From the IMG/VR virus record IMGVR_UViG_3300031949_000021: a stretch of DNA of 20,000 nucleotides; one strand, written 5' to 3'. The position numbers and the translations under genes were made by a program. Origin of the DNA: an uncultured virus (IMG/VR IMGVR_UViG_3300031949_000021). Lineage: Duplodnaviria > Heunggongvirae > Uroviricota > Caudoviricetes. Below, piece by piece: positions 2 to 15,987 of the stretch. Numbering within the stretch: the first letter of the stretch is position 1; each line of letters begins with the position of its first letter. The notes below the pieces were generated by a model that worked only from the letters and a program-made list of their open reading frames with translations, was not told where the DNA came from and made no database searches.

Positions 2-880
2 AGATGTAGAAAGCTTAGACATAGAAAAGCAAGATTTTTAAATAGTGGCAGAAAAGGTTGGATACCCCCAACTATAAAGCAAAAGAAAGAATCAATATTG
101 AGAGTAATTGACGATTTAAAGAAGCGATTAAATATTACAGAAGGCACTATAGAACAAGGGCAGTTTGATACTTCTTCGATGAGTAGAGGGTATCAATTAA
201 TAGGAAAAGAATATCAATTATCAGAATATGTGGGAAATACTTGGAGACAAAAAGTTTTATGGCGAGATAAGTATATTTGTCAACATTGTGATAGTAAAGA
301 AGAATTACAAGCTCATCATATTATTTTAAAGTCTAAAGGTGGAACTAATAGAGTAAATAATGGAATTACCTTATGTAAAAAATGCCATAAAGAGTTACAT
401 GAAGAAAGATGGGAATTAAGTAGAAAACCAAGACATTTTAAGTATCCAACTCATTTACAGCAGGGAAAACAATATTTATTTAATGAGTTAAAAAAGAGAT
501 TTCAAAGTATAGATGTTTGCTATGGTTGGATGACGGCAAAAGCAAGGAAGGCATTGGGGTTAGAGAAAGAGCATTATCACGATGCTTCTGCAATGATTGG
601 GGCAAATAAATATTATTGTAAACTTTATATAATAAAACCAAAAAGGACTAAAATATGGGAAAACAACCCAACAAAGACTTGTAATGAAAAAAATGGTTTT
701 AGGCATATGGACATAGTTAAAGCAAAACACAGAACTAGAGGTACTGTTATTGGATCAATAAGGAGTTTGAAAGCTAAAGTAATAACATTAAGAACAAGTT
801 TTGACGATAACTTTTCTGTAAGTTATAACAAAACAAGATTATTATGGAGACCTAAAGGTTTAATTTATTGTAGAAGTTAA
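2..880 (+). CDS. iscB: IscB-like (IS200/IS605 OMEGA) RNA-guided endonuclease, 5'-truncated by the window edge (at least 292 aa visible)
   Basis: The frame is open from position 2, upstream of the TTG at 98: RCRKLRHRKARFLNSGRKGWIPPT (Arg-rich bridge helix plus the GWxPP motif of IscB). It continues with RuvC-II-like TIEQGQFD, an HNH with Zn ligands (CQHC...LQAHHII...GGTNRVNNGITLCKKCHKELH), RuvC-III-like TAKARKALGLEKEHYHDA, and C-terminal GFRHMDIVKA. RuvC-I, PLMP and omega RNA would lie upstream of the window. Confidence 0.88.
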   Translation, partial: RCRKLRHRKARFLNSGRKGWIPPTIKQKKESILRVIDDLKKRLNITEGTIEQGQFDTSSMSRGYQLIGKEYQLSEYVGNTWRQKVLWRDKYICQHCDSKEELQAHHIILKSKGGTNRVNNGITLCKKCHKELHEERWELSRKPRHFKYPTHLQQGKQYLFNELKKRFQSIDVCYGWMTAKARKALGLEKEHYHDASAMIGANKYYCKLYIIKPKRTKIWENNPTKTCNEKNGFRHMDIVKAKHRTRGTVIGSIRSLKAKVITLRTSFDDNFSVSYNKTRLLWRPKGLIYCRS

Positions 881-896
881 AAGGGAGGTGAAAAAT

Positions 897-1508
897 ATGG
901 CGATTTACAAAAGTGGTGTAGCTATTGAAGTAAGATATGCCCCACCAGATTTTCAAAGTGGTTTAAGTGATGTAAAGATGGAAGTATATGATGAGGCAGG
1001 TGTCGAAATTGCTGGTAGTCCTTTTTCTATGACAGAGATGGATGATGGTGCTGCAACACCAACACTATTAGGTGTTTATGAGGACACATCTAATTTTTTA
1101 CCTGATGCACAGGGATCTTGGACAGTTATTTGCTACTCTATTGCTAATGGTGGGAAAACAGCTAAGACTTACAAAATTGAAGCTCATGATATTGATGATC
1201 TTGGTACAGATTTGGATACAATTATAGCTGATACTAATGAATTACAGACAGATTGGGCAGATGGTGGTAGACTTGATCTTCTTATTGATGCAATTAAGGC
1301 TCAAACAGACTTGTTACCTTCTGATCCAGCAGATCAATCAGCAGTAGAAGCAGCAATAACGGCAGCTCATGCAACTACAGATGGTTTAATTACTACAGTT
1401 GATGGAGTTGTAGATGGTATTCAGACGGATTTAAGTAATGGAACAGATGGCTTGGGAGCAATTAAGGCTGCTGTTGACGCAATCGGTACTGGAGGAATAA
1501 TTCTCTAA
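897..1508 (+). CDS. Putative virion structural protein: N-terminal beta-rich domain plus acidic helical/coiled repeat region
   Basis: ATG at 897 is preceded by GGGAGGTG (883-890), so it is a better start than the GTG at 888. Very acidic, Ala/Asp/Thr-rich C-terminal half (DTNELQTDWADGGRLDLLIDAIKAQTD). Located just before the neck genes. Confidence 0.55.
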   Translation: MAIYKSGVAIEVRYAPPDFQSGLSDVKMEVYDEAGVEIAGSPFSMTEMDDGAATPTLLGVYEDTSNFLPDAQGSWTVICYSIANGGKTAKTYKIEAHDIDDLGTDLDTIIADTNELQTDWADGGRLDLLIDAIKAQTDLLPSDPADQSAVEAAITAAHATTDGLITTVDGVVDGIQTDLSNGTDGLGAIKAAVDAIGTGGIIL

Positions 1509-2279: not shown

Positions 2280-2996
2280 ATGGCAGAATTTTATCTTAAA
2301 AATTTAGCCCCCTATCTTGCAAGATCTGTAAAGGACTTGGGAAAAATGGTCCGTGATGATAATTGTGGGGTGGGTAATGGCAGCAAAACCACTTTTAGAA
2401 CAAACCACTTTCCAGTTAAAATTAATTCCTTAACTGCTTATGTTGATGGAGTTGAAGTAGATGTTGATGAATATGATTACACATATGGCACATTTACTTT
2501 AGTTAGCACGCCAACAGCAGGACAATTAGTTACAGCAAATTATGTGTATTATAGTTGGCCTGATGGTCTATTACAGGATTATATAGCAGATGCAGTTATT
2601 CGTGTAGAAGCAATAGTATATAACCAGGGATATGTAGTACAACGAGACCCAACTACAGATGATGCCTATTTGGAATCAGAACCAGATCAAGCAACAAAAA
2701 TGTTATATGTAATACAAGCTACAATAGATTTTGCTAACTCCGATATTGGTGGAGATAGTTTAATCAGCACTAGAAATTTTAAAGACGATGAAGTAGAACA
2801 ATCTTATACAAGAAGTGCTCAATTAACAAGAGACTACTTGAATAATTTATATAAAGAAAGAGATCGACTAGCCGAAGCCCTTATTTCTGATGATTCAGAT
2901 TATGGATATTATATAGAGAGCACGCTCAATACTAACGAAGCCAGGATGAGATATCTGGATTCTATAGCTGTTGGGGCGTATGAAGAAATTGGATAA
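2280..2996 (+). CDS. Head-to-tail adaptor-like protein with an inserted beta-sandwich domain
   Basis: SD AAGGAG. The segment GNGSKTTF...YVDG...GTFTLVSTPTAGQLVTANY is a small phage beta-domain, followed by helical DGLLQDYIADA... typical of adaptors. It is the first gene of the neck block. Confidence 0.6.
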   Translation: MAEFYLKNLAPYLARSVKDLGKMVRDDNCGVGNGSKTTFRTNHFPVKINSLTAYVDGVEVDVDEYDYTYGTFTLVSTPTAGQLVTANYVYYSWPDGLLQDYIADAVIRVEAIVYNQGYVVQRDPTTDDAYLESEPDQATKMLYVIQATIDFANSDIGGDSLISTRNFKDDEVEQSYTRSAQLTRDYLNNLYKERDRLAEALISDDSDYGYYIESTLNTNEARMRYLDSIAVGAYEEIG

Positions 2997-3007
2997 GAGG
3001 AGATAAA

Positions 3008-3463
3008 TTGGCTAATTGGTACTCTTCTGACGAAATAAAAGAGCAAATAAATGAAATTAGAGACTTAACAGGAGACTCTAATAGAGTATATTTAATTACA
3101 ATTACAGAAGCAGATTGCCCATCTTGTGAGTATAATGAAGTTACTCACGAATCTAAAGATAGTAGTTGTGTAACCTGCGGAGGTAGTGGTAAATTACCAA
3201 CGGAATCATCTGTATCCTTATTAGCTAAAATAAGATGGGTAAATGAAATAGAGGCCAATTTAATGAAAATAGGTTATTTACCAAGAGGAGGAGTAACTAT
3301 CACTATAGATAATACTTATGAATCAAATATAGATAATCTTACTCCAATAGATAGAGTAGAGGTAGATGGAATAGAGATAAGAATAAAAGGAAAAAAACCG
3401 AAAGGGTATAAGAAAGTAAACCGAACAGTATTTTATGCTGAGCCAATATCATTAAGCACATAA
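3008..3463 (+). CDS. Head closure/stopper-like neck protein with a Zn-binding insertion
   Basis: TTG start after AGAGGAG. CPSC...CVTCGGSG motif and a beta-rich C-terminus (DRVEVDGIEIRI). Follows the adaptor. Confidence 0.55.
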   Translation: MANWYSSDEIKEQINEIRDLTGDSNRVYLITITEADCPSCEYNEVTHESKDSSCVTCGGSGKLPTESSVSLLAKIRWVNEIEANLMKIGYLPRGGVTITIDNTYESNIDNLTPIDRVEVDGIEIRIKGKKPKGYKKVNRTVFYAEPISLST

Positions 3464-3470
3464 GAAAGGG

Positions 3471-3827
3471 ATGAGGATAATGGAAGAAATAAGGGAACTA
3501 GAGGTCTTAAAGAACAGATTAATTCGTGAATACTTAAAAGAGATCGTGGGAGATAAGGATGATAAGCAGTTTATTCCTTTAATAGAAGATGAAGAAGTAG
3601 CTAGAAAAGTAAGAAAACTTTTTCTAGATACTATAAATACTTTGTATAAAAATGCACTAATTTATATTGCAGCGCAAAAAGGAGTTATTATTCAAAGTTT
3701 AGAGACATTAGCAAAACAAGATTTACCAGAAGATTTTAGTTTAGAGGGTTTAATAGAAAGAACAGAAAAGAAAGTAGCGGAGAGAAAAGTACAAGCTAGA
3801 CGAGCAGATGGAAAAAATGAGGACTAA
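3471..3827 (+). CDS. Hypothetical protein (charged, predicted helical)
   Basis: ORF packed between neck genes; no motif recognised. Confidence 0.6.
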   Translation: MRIMEEIRELEVLKNRLIREYLKEIVGDKDDKQFIPLIEDEEVARKVRKLFLDTINTLYKNALIYIAAQKGVIIQSLETLAKQDLPEDFSLEGLIERTEKKVAERKVQARRADGKNED

Positions 3828-3831
3828 ATAA

Positions 3832-4407
3832 ATGTTAACAGCAAGTTGTAATTACTCAGCCGTATTAGCTGGGGCCAAAAAGCTACAAATGAAGGTTAAA
3901 TTAGGAACTAAAGCAGCTTTTACTAATTTAGTTATTAGTGGAACAGATGAGACTATAAATAACCTATTAAAGTCATATAAGACTACTCCAGGAAGATCTG
4001 ATTTTGCTAGAACAGGTATTTTGGAAAGGGCTATATTTACAGCAATAAATACAGGAACAGCTATTCCTGGTGGTTGGTTAGCTGGAATAGGGGATATGAA
4101 ACAATTATATTCTATGGCCCCTTATTGGAATATGGTAGAAGAGGGGTCAAGCGAATATGTTGGGGAAGAGAGAGAAGGCTTTTGGGCAGATTCTAGTGGA
4201 TCACCATATTCTATTCATGGTGCTTTTGGAAGATCTGGAGCACCAGACTCTTCTTATTATCCACAGCATAAATGGGTAGATGCTCCTGGTTTTATTATGG
4301 AGATTACAAAACCAATTCAAGAGCACAAATTTTATGCAAATACAGCAGATGGTATGAGGAAAATATTTTTATCTTATGTTTCAGGATTTGTTAAAGGAGC
4401 AATTTAA
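3832..4407 (+). CDS. Neck/tail-completion protein, HK97 gp10-like
   Basis: RTGILERAI and APYWNMVEEGS resemble the gp10-family RTGxL and Y..xVExGT motifs. Sits between the stopper and the terminator. Confidence 0.6.
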   Translation: MLTASCNYSAVLAGAKKLQMKVKLGTKAAFTNLVISGTDETINNLLKSYKTTPGRSDFARTGILERAIFTAINTGTAIPGGWLAGIGDMKQLYSMAPYWNMVEEGSSEYVGEEREGFWADSSGSPYSIHGAFGRSGAPDSSYYPQHKWVDAPGFIMEITKPIQEHKFYANTADGMRKIFLSYVSGFVKGAI

Positions 4408-4914: not shown

Positions 4915-5694
4915 ATGAAAAGGAGTGAAAACTTAGTGCGGAATGATTTAACTAAGGAAGTTATTTGTAAAAAATATGTGGAAGAAAAGAAGTCTATTAA
5001 TAAGATTAGTGAAGAACTAAGGTCATCTCATACCACAATAGCTAATAGGTTAAAGACTTATGGGCTAGAAATAAGAGATTATCATAGATTTAACGAATTT
5101 GATAAAGAATTTTTTGCACAAAATTATGTAAAAAATGAAAAATCTTCAAAAGAAATTGCAAAAGAGGTTGGAGTATCTCAAGGAGCTATTTTAAATCGGC
5201 TTAGAAAACATAATATAGATATTAGAAAAAGAGAATCTAAGGATATCAAATTAACCGAAACACAAAAAGCATATATAGCTGGTGTAATAGATGGAGAAGG
5301 TTGTATTTGTTTATATAAAAGTAATTCTAGGCATATATTATGTGTATCCTTTACATCAACAGATAAAAGATTGATAGCCTATTTATCTAAATTGCTAGAT
5401 TGGAATTTTGCTTATACAAAGCCTAAAAATAGGATATGGAAAACTTCTTATAGATTACAGGCAATGGATTCAAGATCAGAAAGAGCTTTAAAAGATATAC
5501 TACCTTATTTAATTATTAAAAGAGAACAGGCAGAATTAGCTTTAAGATTTAGGGAGACTTATAAGATTAAATATCCTAAAAGAAAAGGGATACCTAAAAA
5601 TATTTGGGATTTAAGAGAATCCCAAGAAAAACAGATGCATATTCTTAATAAAAAAGGTGCATCAAATAAACCTATTGAAAAGGAGGTTATTTAG
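4915..5694 (+). CDS. Free-standing single-motif LAGLIDADG homing endonuclease with two N-terminal HTH repeats
   Basis: AYIAGVIDGEGCI motif and ILPYLIIKREQAELALRF C-terminal signature. Two HTH-like repeats (KYVEEKKSINKISEEL...IANRL and NYVKNEKSSKEIAKEVGVSQGAILNRL). An alternative start is GTG 4936 after AAGGAG. Confidence 0.85.
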   Translation: MKRSENLVRNDLTKEVICKKYVEEKKSINKISEELRSSHTTIANRLKTYGLEIRDYHRFNEFDKEFFAQNYVKNEKSSKEIAKEVGVSQGAILNRLRKHNIDIRKRESKDIKLTETQKAYIAGVIDGEGCICLYKSNSRHILCVSFTSTDKRLIAYLSKLLDWNFAYTKPKNRIWKTSYRLQAMDSRSERALKDILPYLIIKREQAELALRFRETYKIKYPKRKGIPKNIWDLRESQEKQMHILNKKGASNKPIEKEVI

Positions 5695-7028: not shown

Positions 7029-7648
7029 GTGAGATTATGTAAGTGTGGCTGTAAAAAGTCTACCACTAGGGAAGAAAACAATTTTATTCAAGGACATAAC
7101 CTAAAGAATAGGATTGTTGCAGTGGAAACCAAAAGAAAAATATCTGAGGCACTAAAAGGTATAAATAACCCTAATTATGGCAAGCATTTTTCCGAAGTAA
7201 CTAGAAAAAAGATGTCTAAAGCACGTAAAGGAAAAAAGAATTCTTTTTACGGCAAGCAGCATTCGGCAAAGACAAGGGAAAAGATGCATAAAGAGCACAA
7301 AAAAGGACAGATTGCCTGGAATAAGAATTTAACAAAAGAAACAGATGATCGTGTGGCGGGGATAGCCAAAAAATATCAAAGGCAGCAAGAGGAGAAAATA
7401 ATTCTTCTTGGAAAGGTGGCATATCATTTGAACCATATTCTTTGGAATTTAATAATGAGTTGAAGGAAAAAATTCGAAAAAGAGATAAGTATACATGCCA
7501 AAAATGTGGTATTAAAGAACCGTTAAATAATTATTTTAAAGTTTTAGATATTCACCATAAGGATCACAATAAGAAAAATAACAGCACTCAAAATTTAATC
7601 TCACTGTGTAGAAGTTGCAATGTAAAAGAGAATAAGAAGATAGTATAG
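7029..7648 (+). pseudogene. NUMOD3-repeat/HNH homing endonuclease split by a 1-nt frameshift at A6 (7368-7373)
   Basis: The 5' part has CKCGC and NUMOD3-like repeats (ETKRKISEALKG, NPNYGKHFSEVTRKKMS, NSFYGKQHSAKTREKM). The -1 frame reads KISKAARGENNSSWKGGISFEPYSLEFNNELKEKIRKRDKYTCQKCG...IHHKDHNKKNN...NLISLCRSC. One extra A gives a single 206-aa ORF. Confidence 0.8.
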
Positions 7649-7656
7649 TATTTAGA

Positions 7657-7749
7657 GCTTGGGAATAGATTTAGGGGGTATGGTCGATATAGTCGGCCCC
7701 CCTCTTAATCCCCAAGTAAACCAGGAGAGGCAAAAACCTGGGATTAAGA
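7657..7749 (+). promoter_or_regulatory. GC-rich structured intergenic element with two mutually exclusive hairpins (candidate cis-regulatory RNA)
   Basis: Stem A pairs CTTGGG/CCCAAG, GATT/AATC, AGGGG/CCCCT and GGTCGA/TCGGCC (7657-7717). Stem B pairs TCTTAATCCC (7703-7712) with GGGATTAAGA (7740-7749), with inner CCAGG/CCTGG. Confidence 0.55.
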
Positions 7750-7792
7750 CTAGGAAAATATAAATGTTTTTAAGATTAAAGGAGAGAGGAAA

Positions 7793-8464
7793 ATGAGTAA
7801 AATTAGTATTAAAGACCTGTACAAGATTGAAAAGGTAGTTACTGTTAAGGATGAAAAAACAGGAAATGAAGCAGATGTATGTTTAAGAATTATATCAGAT
7901 AGTGGAAGAGAAGATGCAATTAGATATGCAAACAAAGAAAAAGCAGAATTAGCTAAAAAGCTAGAGGATAAAGATAGCCCAGAGTATTTTGCTTTAAAAG
8001 AGCAGATAAAAAATTCTCCTGTAGACACATTAGAACTAAAGATTAAAATTATAAAAGAGTCTTTAGTTGGTGATGAGGCATATTTAGCTTTGAGAGCAGA
8101 TGATAAGTATAAAGAGTTGGATGATGGAGAATTATCAGATAGTGAAGATTTTCAAGATGCCTATCTTAAAGAAAGAAGTAAAATAGCTGATGAGTATCTT
8201 GAAAAGCTAGATAAAAATGAAAATAATCTTAGAAAAGAATTAATGGATTTGCAGCTTAAATCCATGCTTAATTCTTTTTTTATGCACAGTTTTAATGAAA
8301 AGATTTTAGTACATGCTATAAGAGATCCAGAAGATTCTTCTAAAAGACTTTTTGATTCTGTAGAGAAGATGAAAGATAACTTTTTTGGGGATAGTTATGT
8401 ACAACTAATTGAAAAATATTATGGTCTTTCTGGAAATAAAACGGAGAATGATATAAAAAACTAG
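7793..8464 (+). CDS. Tail assembly chaperone (lambda gpG-like)
   Basis: Located between the major tail and tape measure genes. Ends ATA AAA AAC TAG, with a slippery heptamer just before the stop. Confidence 0.8.
   Translation: MSKISIKDLYKIEKVVTVKDEKTGNEADVCLRIISDSGREDAIRYANKEKAELAKKLEDKDSPEYFALKEQIKNSPVDTLELKIKIIKESLVGDEAYLALRADDKYKELDDGELSDSEDFQDAYLKERSKIADEYLEKLDKNENNLRKELMDLQLKSMLNSFFMHSFNEKILVHAIRDPEDSSKRLFDSVEKMKDNFFGDSYVQLIEKYYGLSGNKTENDIKN
8455..8461 (+). promoter_or_regulatory. Programmed -1 ribosomal frameshift site A_AAA_AAC
   Basis: Canonical X_XXY_YYZ heptamer in the correct phase, directly before the chaperone stop codon. Confidence 0.85.
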
Positions 8465-8751
8465 CACAAAGCGATACCTTTCTTAATTTAGTTGGTATCG
8501 CAAAGGATTTTAATAACCTAGATTCTCTACTTCCAGAAGGAATAAAGAAATTGTATGACGTTCCGTGGACTATTATTTTAGCTATAGAACAGGCTAAGAA
8601 AGTACTTAGTTGGTATGAAAATTTATCAGAAGAAAAAAGACCACCGAAAGAAATATGGAAAAATGATAGAAAACTTAAAAAATGGTTTGATGATGTATTC
8701 GGAGATAAAGGAAATAAGCACTACGATAGTTATATCAAAGTTGATAAGTAA
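8461..8751 (+). CDS. Frameshift extension of the tail assembly chaperone (gpT part of a ~319-aa gpGT fusion)
   Basis: The -1 frame is open from the slip site (LAQSDTFLNLVGIAKDFNNLDSLLPEGIKKLYDVPW...) and continues into the listed 8551..8751 ORF, whose TTG start lacks a clear SD. Confidence 0.8.
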   Translation, partial: LAQSDTFLNLVGIAKDFNNLDSLLPEGIKKLYDVPWTIILAIEQAKKVLSWYENLSEEKRPPKEIWKNDRKLKKWFDDVFGDKGNKHYDSYIKVDK

Positions 8752-8776
8752 ATTGTTTGAGAGTGTGGTGATTAAA

Positions 8777-9538
8777 ATGTTTGGAAGAGAATATGTTAGT
8801 ATTTATTGGCATACTTGTAAATATTGTGGTAAAGATTTTTATGAAAAGTCTAGTAGTAGAAAAAGAATTTTTTGTAGTAAGAGTTGTTGGAATAAATATT
8901 ATCGAGGAGAGCGTAGTTTAGATGTAAACTTTTTTAAACAATGGACAGAAGAAATGGCCTATATTCTAGGATATATAGCCGCAGATGGGTGCATTAGTAG
9001 ATCTAATGGTTATCCTTATCTAATGTTTGCTAGTATTGATAAGGACATAATATTGAAAGTAAGGAAAGTATTAAAGTCTACCCATAAAATACGGGAGTTG
9101 TTTCCTAACGGATTTAAAGGAAAAAAACAGTATCACCTGTCTATTGGAGCAAAAGATATTTGGGAAGACTTAGAAAGTTTAGGGATAACTGAAAGGAAGT
9201 CTTTAACTTTAAAATTCCCTAGTGCGCCAAAAGAATACCAAAGACATTTTATTAGGGGATATTTTGATGGAGATGGGTATATAACAAAGTGTGAAGACAG
9301 AGATACGATTGGATTTTTGGGTACTTATGACTTTATATCTACTGTAGAGAATATTTTTAGAAATAGGCTTAATATAAGAGAAAAAAAGATTCAGGAAATA
9401 GAATCTGGCAAGTTGCATAGAATCAATTATTACACTAGGGAAGCTTTTTCTATTTTAGAGTGGATGTATAAGGATTCAAATATTTATTTAGACAGAAAAT
9501 ATAACAAATATAAAGAGATGATAGCTTATGCCAGATAG
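8777..9538 (+). CDS. Free-standing double-motif LAGLIDADG endonuclease with an N-terminal Cys4 Zn motif
   Basis: YILGYIAADGCI and HFIRGYFDGDG motifs, YLDRKY C-terminus, and CKYCGKDF...FCSKSC. ATG 8777 follows GTGGTGA and avoids overlap with gpT. Confidence 0.85.
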   Translation: MFGREYVSIYWHTCKYCGKDFYEKSSSRKRIFCSKSCWNKYYRGERSLDVNFFKQWTEEMAYILGYIAADGCISRSNGYPYLMFASIDKDIILKVRKVLKSTHKIRELFPNGFKGKKQYHLSIGAKDIWEDLESLGITERKSLTLKFPSAPKEYQRHFIRGYFDGDGYITKCEDRDTIGFLGTYDFISTVENIFRNRLNIREKKIQEIESGKLHRINYYTREAFSILEWMYKDSNIYLDRKYNKYKEMIAYAR

Positions 9539-12500
9539 TGCGCATTCTTTTGTAATTTCCTTCATTGCTAATATGGCACAATTAGATGCTGCGATTGGTG
9601 TCCAATTGCCTGCTAAAATGGCACAGGCGGTAAAAAATACAAACACTATTTTAACAACAGGAATGTCACAAAATGTAAAAGATGTAGCTACTGTAAAAAA
9701 GGGTATGGACAATCTAACAAAAGCACCCGCACCAAAACCAACCCCACAGCCGTTTGCACCAATTCCTCCAGGTCAAATAAAAACAATTAAACAGCATAAG
9801 GCTGAACAAGATGCATTGGCTGCTTCAACAGGTAAAGTAACTAAAGCACAAGAACAATCTTTAGCTATAAATCAAAAAGCAGCGAAACAATTAGGAGTAC
9901 ATCCAGATGCACTTACCAAGAGTAGAGAAGCCGCTAAAGTACAAAGTAGAGTAAATCAACATTTAAGAGATACGGGTCAGGCAGGAACAAAAGCTAAAAA
10001 GGGTTTTACTGATGCTTTTACTGGTGCTGATTCTTTATCTTCTGTTATTGGTAAGGTAGCTTTATGGACAATAGCAACTGGAGCAGTATTTGGTATGGTT
10101 AGGGCTGTTTCTGAATTAACCCAAAGAAACATAGAATTAGAGAAACATTTTGCAGATTTAAAGCGTGTAATTGATGCAACAAATATGGACAGAATAACAA
10201 CTCAAGTATTTGGTATGGCCCATGCTTTTGGTGTTGCAACTACAGATGTCATAGACGCTACATTTGAATGGGGAAAAACTACAAGAAGTATGACAGATAT
10301 AGTTTATGGGCAGCAAGCATCTATACTAGCAGTAAAAGTTGGGGAAATGGAACTAGCCGATTCTACTAAGTATTTGACTGCTCTTTATCATTCTATGGGA
10401 TTACGTGGACAAGAACTTATAGATGTAGTAGATCAATTAAATGCTTTGCAGAATAAATATGGCGCAAATATTTCTGGTACAATGGAAGTATTAGCTAGGT
10501 CTGGTGGTATTATTAAGACCTATGGAGGAGATTTAAGACAAACTATGGCCCTATCTGCTGCTGCTTTGAAAATGACAGGAGAACAGCCGTCTAAGGTTGC
10601 AACATTATTTAGAAGGCTTCCCGAATATTTAGAAAAGAATAAAGGAAAGCTTGCACTTTTAGGCGCAGAAATGAGCAAAGCTGATGGAACTTCTCTTAAT
10701 TTGGAAAAACGAATAAACAACTTATTTAAAGCATACACTAAACAAGATCAAGCAGGAAAAGAGGCTATTGTAAGATTAGCTGCTGAAGGAAGAAGTAGGG
10801 GTATAATGGCAACCCTACTTAAAAACCAAGATGTTTATATGGCAATGCAAAAAGAAACATATGGAGCTGCTGGAAGTGCTGCTATAGAATATTCCTTAAT
10901 AATGGATACGACAAAGGAAAAAATGGCAAGACTTAATGCAACAATAGATAGATTTGCTAGTGCATCTAATGTAACTAATCCAATAGGGGAAATGGTAGAT
11001 TCTTTTGATGCTTTATTAAGAGCTGTATTAGCAGTTAATGATGCTGCTGGTAGCTTATTTGATACATTAAACAATATTCCTGGAAAAATTACTTTACCTA
11101 TTCCAGCTCCAGGAGGGGCACAAGCAGGAGTAGGGGAAGTAGCTCAAATGGGCTATGCCGCAGGAACAAGTGCTTTTATAAAAGGCCCAGCAGTTGCGCC
11201 TGGTAGAATGGCATCAGCATTAGATGTTGCTGGGGCACTTAGACCAGAAATTATAGAAGCAAAAAGTGCAAAAGAGAGAATGGAAGCCTGGCAAAAACAT
11301 AATAAGGAAGTCCTTAAAGCACTATTAGGGATAGAGTCTACTCCAGAAACAAAATCTAAAGTAGCAATGAAGAAATTGTTAGATAATAGAGAACAGGCAT
11401 TAGATCAAACAAAACAAGATATGCAGGTAGAACTTCAGGCTAAAGCAGCTTACATGGAAATGGAAGATAAGATTAAAAAGGAGTATGAAAAGAAATCAGG
11501 AAAAGAATTAAGTGATTCAGGCATAAAAATAGCAATGATAAAAGAGATGGGTAAGTTGGGGGATTTTAAAAAGTCCACTATAAAAACAATGATAGAGGAG
11601 GAAAACGCAGCAGCTAAATTAGCTGGGATAGAGGGATTATCTAAAAAAGAGATTCAAAAGATAGAAGATACCACTACTGATTTAACAGCAGCAACAAACG
11701 AATATAGTGTTGGATTAATATCTGCTGCTGAATACCAAAAAGAATTAAATAAAGCATTAAAAATATTACCTGAAGGGTCAGAAGAGTGGATTAAGACATT
11801 ACAAGCAAGTAAACAACAAATGGCTGCGCTTATTCAATCTAGAAATAACTTAGCCAAAGCCGCTGCTGAATTTGCAGGTACAGGGGAATTAGAGTCTGCT
11901 ATAATGACACAAAGACAAGCAACTGATGAGTATAATAGGATTAAAAAGTTGCATAAACAAAATAGGGCAACTGAAGAAGAATTAAATAATGCCAAAGCAG
12001 CTTCATATCAAGCAGGAGCAGCGGCTAAAGAGTCAAGAAAAAATCAAATAAGGGCTGAGGAAGAACTGTCTGTAGCCTTTGCAAAAAGTGGAATAGAAAT
12101 AGCAGAAAAAGAACTTCGGATAGCTATAAATGAATTAAGTAGGGCAAACGGGAAAATAGAAAAAGATAAAGCTAGAAAAAATATAGAAGATAAAAGAAGA
12201 GCTTTAATTGATGCCCAAATAGCACGACAAAATTTATTATTAGATGTAGCAGAAGCAGGGGCTAGAACAGAACAGGCATCTATAAATATAGCTTTTCAAA
12301 GAGCTTCTATATTAGCTAAAGCTGCTTATACATGGGAGCAATCTCAGCAAGCTGTAATAATGAAAGAAGAGGCCATAAAAAGACAAGAGGAATATAATAA
12401 GAGTTTAGCTGAAGCACGATTTTCTCTATCATTAGCTAGTAAAAGAAAGCCATTAGAAAGAGTACAAATGGAAATACAGCATGCATATAAAATGCTTGCT

Positions 12501-13172
12501 TTAGAAAAAGACGCAGTAAAAAAACTAGGTATTTTAGCAAAAATAGAAGATTTAAGACTTCAACAACATGCAGATTTGCATGATTTAGAGAAAGCTGTAG
12601 ATGAAGCAAGAGAAGCTAGGATTCTTGAGCCTCTTGAAAAAGCTAGGGCCGAATTACAAAGATCAGAAGCAGAAGTTCCCTGGGTTAGAAATATGGAAGG
12701 AGAAGCAGCAGCACTTAGACAAGAAACGGCAAATTACGAAAAAGCTAAACAATTAAGAATGGATTATTATACACAGGAAAAATCTATTCTTGAAATGCGA
12801 AGAGAATTAGGAGAGATAACTGTACAGCAACAAATAGAGGCTACTATAGCACTTGCTAGAAGCGTAGAGATGACTAGAGAACAAACCTATCAGTTAAGAA
12901 CGGAACTTAAAAGATTACAAGAGGAATCAGAAGCAGAAAAAAGAGAGTCCTTTAATCTTCCAGATATAGCTCTTCCAACCATGTATGAAATAAAACGTAG
13001 TTTACAAGGAGGATATTATCAGCAAGGCGGAGGATATAATGATAATCGAGAAGTTAATATATTTATTAGTAGAGATGTTGATATGAATAGGATAGATGAG
13101 GCTTTAGGAAGAAATAATGTAAATATTTATCAAGGTGGAAAGACTAGAGGTTTGGTGACAAGGAGGTACTAA
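9528..13172 (+). CDS. Tape measure protein (1214 aa)
   Basis: Longest ORF, Ala/Lys/Glu-rich and helical. TP901-like core (DVIDATFEWGK...VVDQLNALQNKYG...SKVATLFR). Directly downstream of the chaperone locus. Confidence 0.92.
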   Translation: MPDSAHSFVISFIANMAQLDAAIGVQLPAKMAQAVKNTNTILTTGMSQNVKDVATVKKGMDNLTKAPAPKPTPQPFAPIPPGQIKTIKQHKAEQDALAASTGKVTKAQEQSLAINQKAAKQLGVHPDALTKSREAAKVQSRVNQHLRDTGQAGTKAKKGFTDAFTGADSLSSVIGKVALWTIATGAVFGMVRAVSELTQRNIELEKHFADLKRVIDATNMDRITTQVFGMAHAFGVATTDVIDATFEWGKTTRSMTDIVYGQQASILAVKVGEMELADSTKYLTALYHSMGLRGQELIDVVDQLNALQNKYGANISGTMEVLARSGGIIKTYGGDLRQTMALSAAALKMTGEQPSKVATLFRRLPEYLEKNKGKLALLGAEMSKADGTSLNLEKRINNLFKAYTKQDQAGKEAIVRLAAEGRSRGIMATLLKNQDVYMAMQKETYGAAGSAAIEYSLIMDTTKEKMARLNATIDRFASASNVTNPIGEMVDSFDALLRAVLAVNDAAGSLFDTLNNIPGKITLPIPAPGGAQAGVGEVAQMGYAAGTSAFIKGPAVAPGRMASALDVAGALRPEIIEAKSAKERMEAWQKHNKEVLKALLGIESTPETKSKVAMKKLLDNREQALDQTKQDMQVELQAKAAYMEMEDKIKKEYEKKSGKELSDSGIKIAMIKEMGKLGDFKKSTIKTMIEEENAAAKLAGIEGLSKKEIQKIEDTTTDLTAATNEYSVGLISAAEYQKELNKALKILPEGSEEWIKTLQASKQQMAALIQSRNNLAKAAAEFAGTGELESAIMTQRQATDEYNRIKKLHKQNRATEEELNNAKAASYQAGAAAKESRKNQIRAEEELSVAFAKSGIEIAEKELRIAINELSRANGKIEKDKARKNIEDKRRALIDAQIARQNLLLDVAEAGARTEQASINIAFQRASILAKAAYTWEQSQQAVIMKEEAIKRQEEYNKSLAEARFSLSLASKRKPLERVQMEIQHAYKMLALEKDAVKKLGILAKIEDLRLQQHADLHDLEKAVDEAREARILEPLEKARAELQRSEAEVPWVRNMEGEAAALRQETANYEKAKQLRMDYYTQEKSILEMRRELGEITVQQQIEATIALARSVEMTREQTYQLRTELKRLQEESEAEKRESFNLPDIALPTMYEIKRSLQGGYYQQGGGYNDNREVNIFISRDVDMNRIDEALGRNNVNIYQGGKTRGLVTRRY

Positions 13173-13532: not shown

Positions 13533-14273
13533 ATGGCTAAAGATAAAATTTGGTTGGAAAATAGGTGTGTAGAAGGACTAACTAGGGAAGAAATGTCTAA
13601 ACTAGCCAACTGCTCTACAAGAACAATTAGTCGTTGGGTAAGTAAATTTAATATTAGTATGCAAGTAGGCAAACCAAAAATTAGTATAGATAAAGATTGG
13701 TTATATCATAAATATAGTATTGAAAAGTTGTCTACACTAGATATAGCTAATTTATGTGGCTATAATGAGGAAACTATACGAAATAGATTAATTGAGTTTA
13801 ATATTCCTATAAGGAGTCGAGTAGAAGGAATAAATACTAATTTAGATAAAAATAAACTGTATAGAAATAAGGAATGGTTATATGACAAATATGTAATAAA
13901 GAAAATGTTAATTAATGCAATAAATAAACAATACTTCTATAGTAGAAAAATAATACGTTTATGGATGGATAAACACAGGATAGAAAAAAGAATTGAAAAG
14001 GGAGGATATATTGCTGCTTATGGCTATATTAAATTAAATATTAATTTTTTATCCCCTTTAGGGTACGTTAATAATGAAGTAATATTAGCTAGATTAATGT
14101 CTACTGATAATATTCATATTTATGAACATCGTCTTATCAGGATAGAAAATCTAGAGTTATGTAATAAACAAGCAGAGCATCTATCTATTCAACAAATAAA
14201 TAAATTAGTTAAAGAGAACACACTATTGCGTGAGGAGAATAAAAAATTAAAGCGGGTGTTATTATATGAGTAG
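13533..14273 (+). CDS. HTH-repeat protein with a degenerate (internally deleted) HNH endonuclease domain
   Basis: Three HTH-like repeats (KIWLE, KDWLYHKY, KEWLYDKY). GYIK...YEHRLI is joined directly to RIENLEL, with no intervening HH...N segment. Confidence 0.7.
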   Translation: MAKDKIWLENRCVEGLTREEMSKLANCSTRTISRWVSKFNISMQVGKPKISIDKDWLYHKYSIEKLSTLDIANLCGYNEETIRNRLIEFNIPIRSRVEGINTNLDKNKLYRNKEWLYDKYVIKKMLINAINKQYFYSRKIIRLWMDKHRIEKRIEKGGYIAAYGYIKLNINFLSPLGYVNNEVILARLMSTDNIHIYEHRLIRIENLELCNKQAEHLSIQQINKLVKENTLLREENKKLKRVLLYE

Positions 14274-15987
14274 ATACCTTGGTAAAGTCTCTCAAACATG
14301 TTATGTTTACCCCCGTGCTACGATCACACAAACACATAGTTTTCAACCAGATAATAATATTAGCTATCGAGTATTTGAACAAGGGGCTATAGAATTAACA
14401 TTACCTAGAGTTAGTTCAATTAATATTTCTAAAACTTATGGTAGTGATGCTGCAACTTGTGATATACAAGTATATGACCCAAATAATCAATTACATCCTT
14501 TAGGATTAGATGTAGATTGGGGGAATACCACTTATCCAGCATTAGTTCCAAACACACTAATTAAAACTTATCAAGGATATGGGGCATCATTACAAAAAAC
14601 GGGTACGTGGATTATTGATGAGGTTAATTTTAATAACCCCCCTGATACAATTACAATAAGTTGCAGAGATTTAGGAAAACTTCTTATAGAACAAACAATG
14701 TATCCACCAATAATCCCTGATGAATTTTATCCGATAGGGTTTTGTTCGACAAGTGATAAAACATCTAATGAAACATATAAAAACACTTCAAGATGGATTC
14801 CTTACACTGATTTATCTGATGTTATTAAATGCCTTTTTAGAATCGCTGGTTTTGATTCTTGGAATATTGAAACTACAGGTATAATGATTACTTTGGAAGA
14901 AATGTCACATATGATGCTTATAGATATAATAAGTAGAGTAAAAGAAATAGTTGGCTATCAACTGTATTTTGATGTAAATGGGATACCTCATTTTGAACAA
15001 GCTCCTGGATCTGGAGGAATATTGCCAACATCAAGCTATGCTATTACACAAGGAGCAGAGTTAATTAATATTAGTAGGACAATAAGAGATGCTAATGCAA
15101 GATCTAAAATATTGGTTCATGGTAGAACAGTTGGTGGAGTAGGAAATATAAACATTATTCCACCACAAAATATCCAACATGTTAGTTATGAAAACCGTCA
15201 AATATTAAATAAATATTGTTTTAACTATTTTAATCCAACACAGGATTGGATAAACTTTAAAGGTTGGGTTTGTGGTATGCCTGCTGATGCTGTTGATAGC
15301 AGTGCAGCAGTTAATAATTGGGTTCCAGTAGCAAGACAAGGAAGTGGTACTAATTATTATGGAATGAATTGTTATAATGCAGTTAAAAACTTTCAAATAG
15401 CTAATGGAATAGTTACATCATCAATTGTAAGAAGTACACATATTGAATGGGGAGATGAAATACAAGGAAAATCTGGTAATTATTGGACAGTTAATAGATA
15501 CAGTCCTGGAGGAAGAACTGTAGGTAATTTTTTTGGGGTTACAAAAAATAAATGGAATTCTGGTAATGCAAATGTTGTAACTACTACAAACGAGTATATT
15601 CCAGGAAGAACTGAAATTGATTTTAGACCTTTAGAATTAATATCTGATTTTGTTGAACCAAACCATTTTTTAACCCCTCTTAGGGGACAGATTAGAGCAG
15701 CAGTACATTCTGATGAGGCCATAGAAAATAAAGAACAGTGTAAAAAAATGGCTAATTTAATTGATTTTTGGAGTAATATGCATAATCATACTATTAGTTT
15801 AACAGTATATGGACAAACAAGATATGATGTAGGGCATTTTGTTGACTTATATGAAGTTGCAACTAAAACAAGAACTAAAGTATTAATAACGGGTGTAAAT
15901 AGTCAAATGGATATATTAAATGGTCATTGGACAATAGGATTAGAGACTTTTGATGCTGATCCTGCTGAACCAATAACTTTCTTGTAG
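14266..15987 (+). CDS. Baseplate hub / tail-associated (Tal-like) protein with a putative peptidoglycan-binding motif
   Basis: Hub-like motifs (GTWIIDEV, ITISCRDLGKLL, LYFDVNG, and C-terminal VYG...DVG...ITGV). YYGMNCYNAVKNFQIANGI resembles the PG_binding_1 helix. Lies after Dit. Confidence 0.75.
   Translation: MSRYLGKVSQTCYVYPRATITQTHSFQPDNNISYRVFEQGAIELTLPRVSSINISKTYGSDAATCDIQVYDPNNQLHPLGLDVDWGNTTYPALVPNTLIKTYQGYGASLQKTGTWIIDEVNFNNPPDTITISCRDLGKLLIEQTMYPPIIPDEFYPIGFCSTSDKTSNETYKNTSRWIPYTDLSDVIKCLFRIAGFDSWNIETTGIMITLEEMSHMMLIDIISRVKEIVGYQLYFDVNGIPHFEQAPGSGGILPTSSYAITQGAELINISRTIRDANARSKILVHGRTVGGVGNINIIPPQNIQHVSYENRQILNKYCFNYFNPTQDWINFKGWVCGMPADAVDSSAAVNNWVPVARQGSGTNYYGMNCYNAVKNFQIANGIVTSSIVRSTHIEWGDEIQGKSGNYWTVNRYSPGGRTVGNFFGVTKNKWNSGNANVVTTTNEYIPGRTEIDFRPLELISDFVEPNHFLTPLRGQIRAAVHSDEAIENKEQCKKMANLIDFWSNMHNHTISLTVYGQTRYDVGHFVDLYEVATKTRTKVLITGVNSQMDILNGHWTIGLETFDADPAEPITFL

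Follow-up and report, generated by a model that had tools for sequence, protein, structure and literature searches.

Cas9 descends from IscB, a small RNA-guided nuclease. The original purpose of RNA-guided cutting has so far been explained only in the case of bacterial transposons, in which an excised copy is restored by it, and phage genomes are a setting in which the IscB machinery could work as a true gene drive from one genome to another. Here we describe an iscB gene at the 5' edge of a 20,000-nt stretch of DNA (the window) from an uncultured virus of the Caudoviricetes (IMG/VR record IMGVR_UViG_3300031949_000021), together with its close relatives in other contigs. We read the gene as part of a compact omega-RNA/IscB element (OMEGA, HEARO-type), i.e. 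a selfish unit between two phage virion genes that would spread by RNA-guided homing, and we give this reading a probability of roughly 0.55.

That IscB and HEARO RNAs are carried by phages is already published (PMC9755519, PMC13346280). According to Goltsman et al. (2022), >16% of the fragments that encode HEARO/IscB come from viruses or prophages (PMC9755519), and a 2025 paper on the CIFT_MFB_MRSA phages names HEARO and RAGATH-18 in its list of RNA features, where no mechanism is attached to them (PMC13346280). According to Meers et al., just ~1.5% of iscB genes have tnpA in their vicinity, and iscB elements share the orientation of the upstream gene (10.1101/2023.03.14.532601). OMEGA homing from phage to phage has been stated as theory: a 2026 review describes 'transposon non-restorative homing' with co-infecting phages or plasmids as recipients, presents the phage case as theoretical and cites a plasmid experiment with TnpB (PMC13565253). 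A full-text literature search did not bring up an experimental study in which IscB drives homing from one phage to another.

The window holds the 3' part of iscB (879 nt, codons 101–392 plus the stop codon; positions 2..880, + strand), the frame of which is open through the 5' window edge. The window-encoded part comprises 292 residues (P0001), while the first 100 codons lie upstream of the window. A protein search retrieved a full-length copy of the same protein (P0002, 392 aa, from a contig of 73,427 nt), which is 100% identical to the window-encoded part and through which alone the N-terminus is known. P0002 matched the NCBIfam model guided_IscB ('RNA-guided endonuclease IscB') with 284.4 bits over model positions 1–311/314, well above the curated equivalog cut-off of 175 bits. 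P0001 scored 164.8 bits (E 2.5e-48, model positions 103–311/314) and stays below this cut-off solely because its N-terminus is outside the window. Further matches of P0001 were obtained with the Pfam families RRXRR (E 2e-14) and HNH (E 1.7e-9, residues 93–134) and, over ~200 residues, with the PHROG 'HNH endonuclease' families phrog_2214 and phrog_119. The best solved chain for P0001 was that of HfmIscB (9k2z_A, E 2.2e-28), to which P0002 aligned over residues 3–384 (phmmer E 1.5e-46). An AlphaFold model of P0002, built on an alignment of 33 homologues, reached a mean pLDDT of 76.2 and a pTM of 0.66. When this model was compared with the PDB using Foldseek, the top 10 matches were all IscB or IsrB-omega RNA complexes (E 4e-23 to 1e-16, TMq 0.48–0.61), and the next ranks were taken by Cas9d and other Cas9 proteins. 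A search for longer proteins detected no fused form of the window IscB. Sequence, key residues and fold securely identify the first gene of the window as a genuine and intact IscB.

Conservation of individual residues was scored over an alignment of 33 homologues with 58–76% identity. At the N-terminus, P0002 carries the PLMP-type motif KPLLPT (residues 11–16), in which P15 is invariant, and its RuvC-I motif reads GIDDG, with D58 and D59 invariant in 33/33 homologues. The window itself begins in the end part of the Arg-rich bridge helix (RCRKLRHRKARF; 2..37, + strand), which aligns to the bridge-helix regions of HfmIscB and OgeuIscB; here R100, R101, R108 and F112 are invariant, but the helix as a whole is not. 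The catalytic Glu of RuvC-II (E151; 152..154, +) is invariant in 33/33 homologues. It is followed by the HNH domain (Pfam HNH; 278..400, +) with the pattern CxxC...HH...N...CxxCH, which includes the zinc-binding Cys and His residues, and C193, C196, H205, H206, N220, C225, C228 and H229 are invariant in all 33. The same holds for H291 and D294 of the RuvC-III motif HYHDA (572..586, +). The split RuvC is complete in P0002, with the Asp of part I, the Glu of part II and the His..Asp of part III, and the HNH domain is inserted in it. The C-terminal beta-rich domain (599..877, +) can be aligned to HfmIscB as far as residue 384/392 and is modelled as beta strands at residues 308–391 (pLDDT mostly 64–92). 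By its position and predicted fold, it is probably the domain that interacts with the target-adjacent motif (TAM).

These results agree with the initial annotation of the window, which had been made from the letters alone. It had called the gene an IscB-like RNA-guided nuclease and had listed bridge helix, RuvC-II Glu, HNH and RuvC-III as intact; all four are present, and with the exception of the bridge helix they are invariant in 33/33 homologues. It had further pointed to the DNA upstream of the window, where PLMP and RuvC-I motifs should be sought and where a disrupted 5' part might come to light. P0002 has both motifs in a 392-aa frame that is open and free of disruptions.

Protein-anchored scans of viral and metagenome contigs yielded close relatives of the window IscB with 53–90% identity, and a word-based protein search gave 357 proteins at E <= 1e-10. 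Ten distinct loci provided at least 250 nt of upstream DNA and were employed for analysis of the omega RNA. In 10/10 loci, ~230 nt of conserved DNA run to the start codon (CTTAAATG), and the DNA farther upstream is unrelated. RNAalifold assigned 43 pairs to the 10-locus alignment, 28 of which exhibit compensatory changes. In a covariation test, 95.5% of the cells could pair, as compared to 34–39% when the partners were slid by 1–3 columns. Double changes were present in 28 pairs versus 5–10 in the slid controls, and 0/500 shuffles attained the observed values. The 5' hairpins of one sub-lineage include G-U pairs and look like RNA. The Rfam family HEARO (RF02033) matched upstream of iscB over its full model length at locus L001 (36.1 bits, E 2.8e-5) and at locus L002 (42.5 bits, E 2.2e-5). 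At the gathering threshold no HEARO was detectable in six sources, and E-value mode gave sub-threshold matches only. The scores of 32–43 bits compare with a gathering score of 83, and therefore the RNA of this clade appears to be a divergent HEARO variant. Judged from these alignments, the conserved upstream RNA is the omega RNA of the clade.

As the alignment is read, the RNA scaffold begins with a short co-varying stem, and unique flank is located directly 5' of this stem. In L001, the stop codon of the gene for the major head protein overlaps with the flank that directly precedes the scaffold; provided that the guide adjoins the scaffold, as in the descriptions of IscB, the guide of L001 would sit at this position. 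Since 10/10 relatives carry an omega RNA upstream of iscB, we infer that the window copy has one as well. A profile of the omega RNA (nhmmer) found no match in the window, nor near the more distant IscBs at L217, L061 and L062. At the edge of locus L005, which belongs to a complete 168-kb phage genome, positions 20738–20819 matched the Rfam tmRNA model above gathering (54.2 vs 47 bits) over 82 nt of its 374 positions.

The omega-RNA/iscB unit is found in diverse surroundings. Loci L049 and L051 share a unit of exactly 1,470 nt with 96% identity, while nothing else in the two contigs aligns. From 5' to 3', this unit comprises 256 nt ahead of the ATG, the ORF and a 26-nt tail including a Shine-Dalgarno (SD) site. 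The window and L001 share 89.4% identity over window positions 8–881 and are alignable nowhere else in the 20 kb; the next two proteins of the window are 44% and 32% identical to the products of L001 genes that are situated 2.9 kb farther downstream. In L001, iscB comes after the major head protein gene; in L002 it is placed between a cysteine-dioxygenase-like gene and an endolysin gene, in L005 between a phosphoesterase gene and phrog_2072, and in L217 between terminase and portal. The ratio dN/dS was 0.10 for the window versus L001 (dS 0.51) and 0.15 for L049 versus L051. By these comparisons, the omega-IscB unit is discrete and mobile, and iscB is under purifying selection that maintains its function.

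Four of five viral records of relatives contain a single close copy. The record of L003 (G003) has one close copy, a distant copy with 37% identity and two terminal fragments. This record is a 149-kb viral contig classed as having inverted terminal repeats, in which positions 4–147 and 148894–149034 encode the last ~48 residues of an IscB with 71–72% identity to P0002, and the distant IscB-like frame is at 95636–96055. Two further intact IscBs of 392 aa, P0003 and P0004, are 83% identical to each other. For both, the longest contig given has 114,682 nt, and the two may be diverged copies in one phage genome. Decayed forms exist too. L008 and L065 retain a remnant of the omega RNA beside a C-terminal IscB fragment only. 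L006 (IMG/VR, 57 kb; 9479–10429) encodes a protein of 317 aa that aligns to residues 1–186 and 252–391 of P0002 without the HNH domain and is preceded by a partial match to the omega profile; it is an IsrB-like derivative that arose inside this IscB clade. L004 and L048, which belong to one phage type, share a block of 2,362 nt with 99.66% identity, comprising 72 nt upstream, the element and ~830 nt downstream. The block is flanked on both sides by unalignable segments, other blocks are 92–99% identical, and either a co-conversion tract or plain mosaicism may account for it.

At its 3' end, the element closes tightly onto the next gene. The TAA stop codon of iscB (878..880, +) is followed by a spacer of 16 nt (881..896, +), which includes the SD GGGAGGTG at 883–890 for the first phage gene downstream (897..1508, +; ATG at 897, whereas the ORF list puts a GTG start at 888). 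DNA homology to L001 stops at nt 881, one base past the stop codon, and the gene at 897..1508 is the one whose product is 44% identical to that of the L001 gene 2.9 kb downstream of iscB. This spacer flanks the element on its downstream side and, if the homing model holds, would contain the TAM. No terminator-like site is present near the iscB stop codon or in the spacer; the two such sites within 1–2300 are at 57–72 (- strand) and 1667–1683. An end hairpin was likewise not found in 700–1100, where the sole inverted repeat is an AT-rich pair of 10-mers within the ORF. The initial annotation had seen a stop codon followed closely by an SD, no GC-rich terminal hairpin and no downstream transposon end, and each of these observations is confirmed here. 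Regarding the gene at 897..1508, the C-terminal half of its product (~residues 100–200) has 212 matching stretches across IMG/VR with 40–88% identity and the N-terminal half none; the former looks like a widespread phage repeat or module.

We propose the following route of spread. Read-through of the co-oriented operon would provide an omega RNA of ~230–260 nt from the DNA upstream of the start codon; in relatives this RNA is seen by its co-variation, and the same step is presumed for the window copy. The 5' end of the RNA, ~16–20 nt of flanking phage DNA according to the limit of conservation in relatives, would serve as guide. IscB, equipped with PLMP motif, split RuvC, bridge helix, HNH and the putative TAM-reading C-terminal domain, would bind the omega RNA and is predicted to cut where a TAM follows the guide match, i.e. 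in insert-free genomes of the same phage type. During co-infection, this break would be repaired with the IscB-bearing genome as template, thereby copying the element together with some flank, which would amount to homing with marker exclusion. The carrier would be immune, as the guide match in its own DNA would be followed by the RNA scaffold rather than by a TAM. Expression of the operon would be preserved because the element ends at the ribosome-binding site of the next gene; one sub-lineage brings its own. Homing of this element is plausible and, as we infer, the best fit to the observations.

Several results weigh against homing as just outlined. IscB-free siblings or natural targets were not detectable for the window, L001, L005, L004 or L051. 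The L001 major head protein, used as query for an empty site, matched only itself, and the L005 phosphoesterase retrieved relatives of <=40% identity, the best full-length ones at 30–37%. The protein encoded at 888..1505 of the window yielded 80 loci without a close sibling, the best whole-length match being 40% identical. The exact 20-nt guide of L004 matched itself only and that of L051 had no match. Inspection by eye of the first bases after ~10 element ends revealed no common TAM motif. A flank-duplication test (local alignment versus shuffles) gave p 0.11–0.91 in the clade of the window; this test is weak because the known positive, the element of Staphylococcus phage VL10 (locus L228), reached only p 0.20. 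The presumed omega RNA, the guide and the upstream neighbour of the window copy would all lie 5' of the window start, and the HEARO matches of the relatives fall well short of the gathering score. The 89%-identical iscB genes of the window and L001 adjoin different genes, so that the locus is not fixed. Near-identical units at unrelated sites with base-sharp ends resemble transposition, and homing alone is insufficient to account for them. Finally, the empty-site example from the Staphylococcus phages, described next, belongs to a distant clade.

A tblastn search of 50,697 phage records with P0002 identified 42 records with IscB-like genes, all with <60% identity and with 27–37% as best values among the matches listed. 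They derive from phages of Staphylococcus, Ralstonia, Clostridium, Nodularia and Microcoleus and are mostly annotated as 'HNH endonuclease' or 'hypothetical protein'. The IscB of the Silviavirus group is only 31–33% identical to P0002. In phage VL10 (OP940114.1), a gap of 271 nt precedes iscB and a sub-threshold, full-length HEARO match is located at 2721–2959, so that the HEARO+IscB unit extends over 2721–4247 (~1.5 kb). Megablast with the VL10 region matched 57 records. Seven of them cover >=80% of the query and hence hold the unit, whereas 30 among the 40 matches listed are without it, because their matches are split in two pieces with 55–58% coverage. Two occupied genomes, VL10 and CIFT_MFB_MRSA28 (PV017447.1, L230), and one empty genome, Remus (NC_022090.1, L229), were inspected. 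Homology with the empty site of Remus ends exactly where the HEARO match starts. The native 19 nt preceding the element (Remus 1088–1106) are the start of a gene for a RusA-like resolvase, and the same 19 nt are repeated after iscB with synonymous changes, which restore the start of the RusA-like gene. The bases following the guide match differ between the empty and the occupied allele. In this comparison of one empty and two occupied genomes, the Silviavirus unit shows the hallmarks of a homing element.

Could the unit in the window's clade be moved by a transposase instead? It might be a non-autonomous IS200/IS605 (ISC) insertion that is mobilized by a Y1 TnpA of the host in trans, in which case IscB would only re-cut the donor joint in the 'restorative' manner and the phage setting would be incidental. 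The base-sharp, identical ends of L049 and L051 at two unrelated sites favour such an insertion, as does co-orientation with the upstream gene, which iscB elements have generally, and an equivalog-level IscB protein fits as well. The initial annotation had suggested that this copy may no longer transpose. This is doubtful in view of L049 and L051: because these near-identical, sharp-ended units occupy unrelated sites, the clade still arrives at new sites in one way or another. A Y1 (HUH) transposase, for which the initial annotation had advised a search, was found in 0/37 ORFs of the window and in 0/5 viral records of relatives (one of them 100% complete, the others 22–82%), with controls positive in 6/14 genomes. 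The missing tnpA counts against a transposon, but it says little, because the gene is near so few iscB genes according to Meers et al. (~1.5%), a rarity that suits an IS insertion. On the other hand, conserved left and right ends (LE/RE) with subterminal hairpins were not recognisable, and homology ends merely 1 nt (window/L001) or 26 nt (L049/L051) past the stop codon. Four of five viral records contain one close copy. A scan of 185,579 species genomes, which detects close relatives only, revealed a single full-length relative (L217, 55% identity), and this one resides on a contig with terminase and portal genes; the clade thus seems to be phage-bound. Scarless insertion by TnpA would also not leave the recoded target duplicate that is present in the distant element of the Staphylococcus phages. 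We regard the IS insertion as possible, albeit unlikely. The L217 gene itself is at 7569–8705 of a 15-kb contig from a metagenome-assembled genome, which also encodes a phrog_506 'transposase' of 378 aa (E 2e-102) that may be a TnpB.

Two further explanations take the gene to be immobile or defunct. IscB could be a domesticated weapon that cuts rival phages or the host chromosome, comparable to phage-borne CRISPR. Strong purifying selection and placement in a highly expressed late operon speak for this idea, and classical phage homing endonucleases double as devices for competitor exclusion, as the 2026 review puts it (PMC13565253). However, the unit has recently moved between unrelated phage backbones (89–96% nucleotide identity with unalignable flanks), other contigs harbor decayed or HNH-less copies (L008, L006), and in every relative the guide position is local flank, as in selfish elements, rather than a conserved chosen target. 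A weapon of this kind is improbable. Very improbable is an orphan copy with an intact protein, in which omega RNA or expression is lost and decay is under way. The upstream region does lie outside the window, and decay products of the same clade exist (the omega remnant with C-terminal fragment of L008, the loss of HNH in L006); yet the 392-aa frame is open, dN/dS versus L001 is 0.10, every catalytic residue is kept and the RNA is retained in 10/10 full-length relatives.

The homing reading can also be extended to the clade as a whole. The clade may be a phage-specialised, TnpA-independent type of RNA-guided homing endonuclease gene that occurs almost only in phages, spreads among co-infecting phages by cutting their insert-free allele via a guide derived from its flank, and does no harm to operons because it ends at, or supplies, the next ribosome-binding site. 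New loci would be reached by capture of a guide from the new flank and not by a transposase. We put this extension forward as a tentative proposal.

The remainder of the window is in keeping with a phage setting. All 23 main ORFs (23/23) are on the + strand. Matches include a 'virion structural protein' (2280..2996, +), the tape-measure protein (9528..13172, +) and a tail protein (14266..15987, +). Scattered through this tail module are 4–5 genes resembling protein-guided homing endonucleases: a gene with LAGLIDADG_3 and HTH domains (4915..5694, +), a NUMOD3 ORF (7029..7463, +), an HNH ORF (7442..7648, +), a second LAGLIDADG_3 gene (8615..9538, +) and a gene of the HTH/PHROG 'HNH endonuclease' type (13533..14273, +). 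The NUMOD3 and HNH ORFs overlap by 22 nt in different frames and may be one frameshifted gene. That iscB lies in a virion module of a phage, with close gene spacing and a shared orientation, is secure. The virion operon named in the initial annotation is recovered as a tightly packed tail module, and the four protein-guided endonuclease genes it had counted downstream correspond to the 4–5 found by domain matches. DNA of the window had no megablast match among the 50,697 phage records and no exact match in the viral contigs searched, and its source contig was absent from the protein-anchored loci in viral and metagenome contigs. Contig pieces from the single public sequencing run containing this DNA covered nt 2537–3000 of the 3000 nt compared and thus did not extend to the 5' side.

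What is known of IscB itself is unchanged by these findings. The window adds one intact, selected, phage-resident IscB and a compact clade of 392-aa proteins with a divergent omega RNA, and the Staphylococcus phages supply a pair of occupied and empty sites that is directly testable.

Compared to the solved IscBs (HfmIscB, 9k2z; TbaIscB, 9k30; OgeuIscB, 7xht, 7utn and 8csz), P0002 has the same domain order and catalytic residues. With 392 aa it is shorter than these proteins (441–1068 aa), lacks the ~130-aa N-terminal extension of HfmIscB and shares ~17–25% identity with them in structural alignments. As to the RNA, L001, L002 and VL10 match positions 1–211 of the HEARO model RF02033 directly upstream of iscB, in the position and on the strand that the family describes. 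The RNA of the clade scores 32–43 bits, below the gathering score of 83, and its structure is taken from the covariation analysis presented here.

Among transposons, the GstIscB/ISGst-type IS605 elements described by Meers et al. (10.1101/2023.03.14.532601) likewise have the omega RNA upstream, a flank-derived guide, no tnpA in cis, co-orientation with the upstream gene and an expected cut at the insert-free junction. According to the same source they differ in having conserved LE/RE, in being multi-copy in a bacterial chromosome and in being moved by an identified TnpA, whereas in the phage clade ends are not recognisable, each phage genome has a single copy and TnpA is absent from 5/5 relatives' records. 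The target of GstIscB is the sister chromatid; in the phage clade it would be another phage genome.

The free-standing homing genes of phage T4, segF, segB and mob, as portrayed in the 2026 review (PMC13565253), are similar in that a small nuclease gene is located between conserved phage genes, is present or absent among relatives and is expected to spread by cutting the insert-free genome in a mixed infection. In T4 the target is recognised by the protein, while here a guide RNA and a short TAM would do so. Self and non-self are told apart by substitutions in neighbouring genes for the T4 homing genes and would be distinguished by the insertion itself in the present case. The Silviavirus element resides in a DNA-metabolism module, not in a virion module, and has a recoded duplicate of its target, whereas the flank-duplication test gave p 0.11–0.91 in the window's clade. 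It is nonetheless alike in combining an omega RNA with IscB between co-oriented genes, with a stop codon that overlaps the next start, and it is matched by a clean empty site in Remus.

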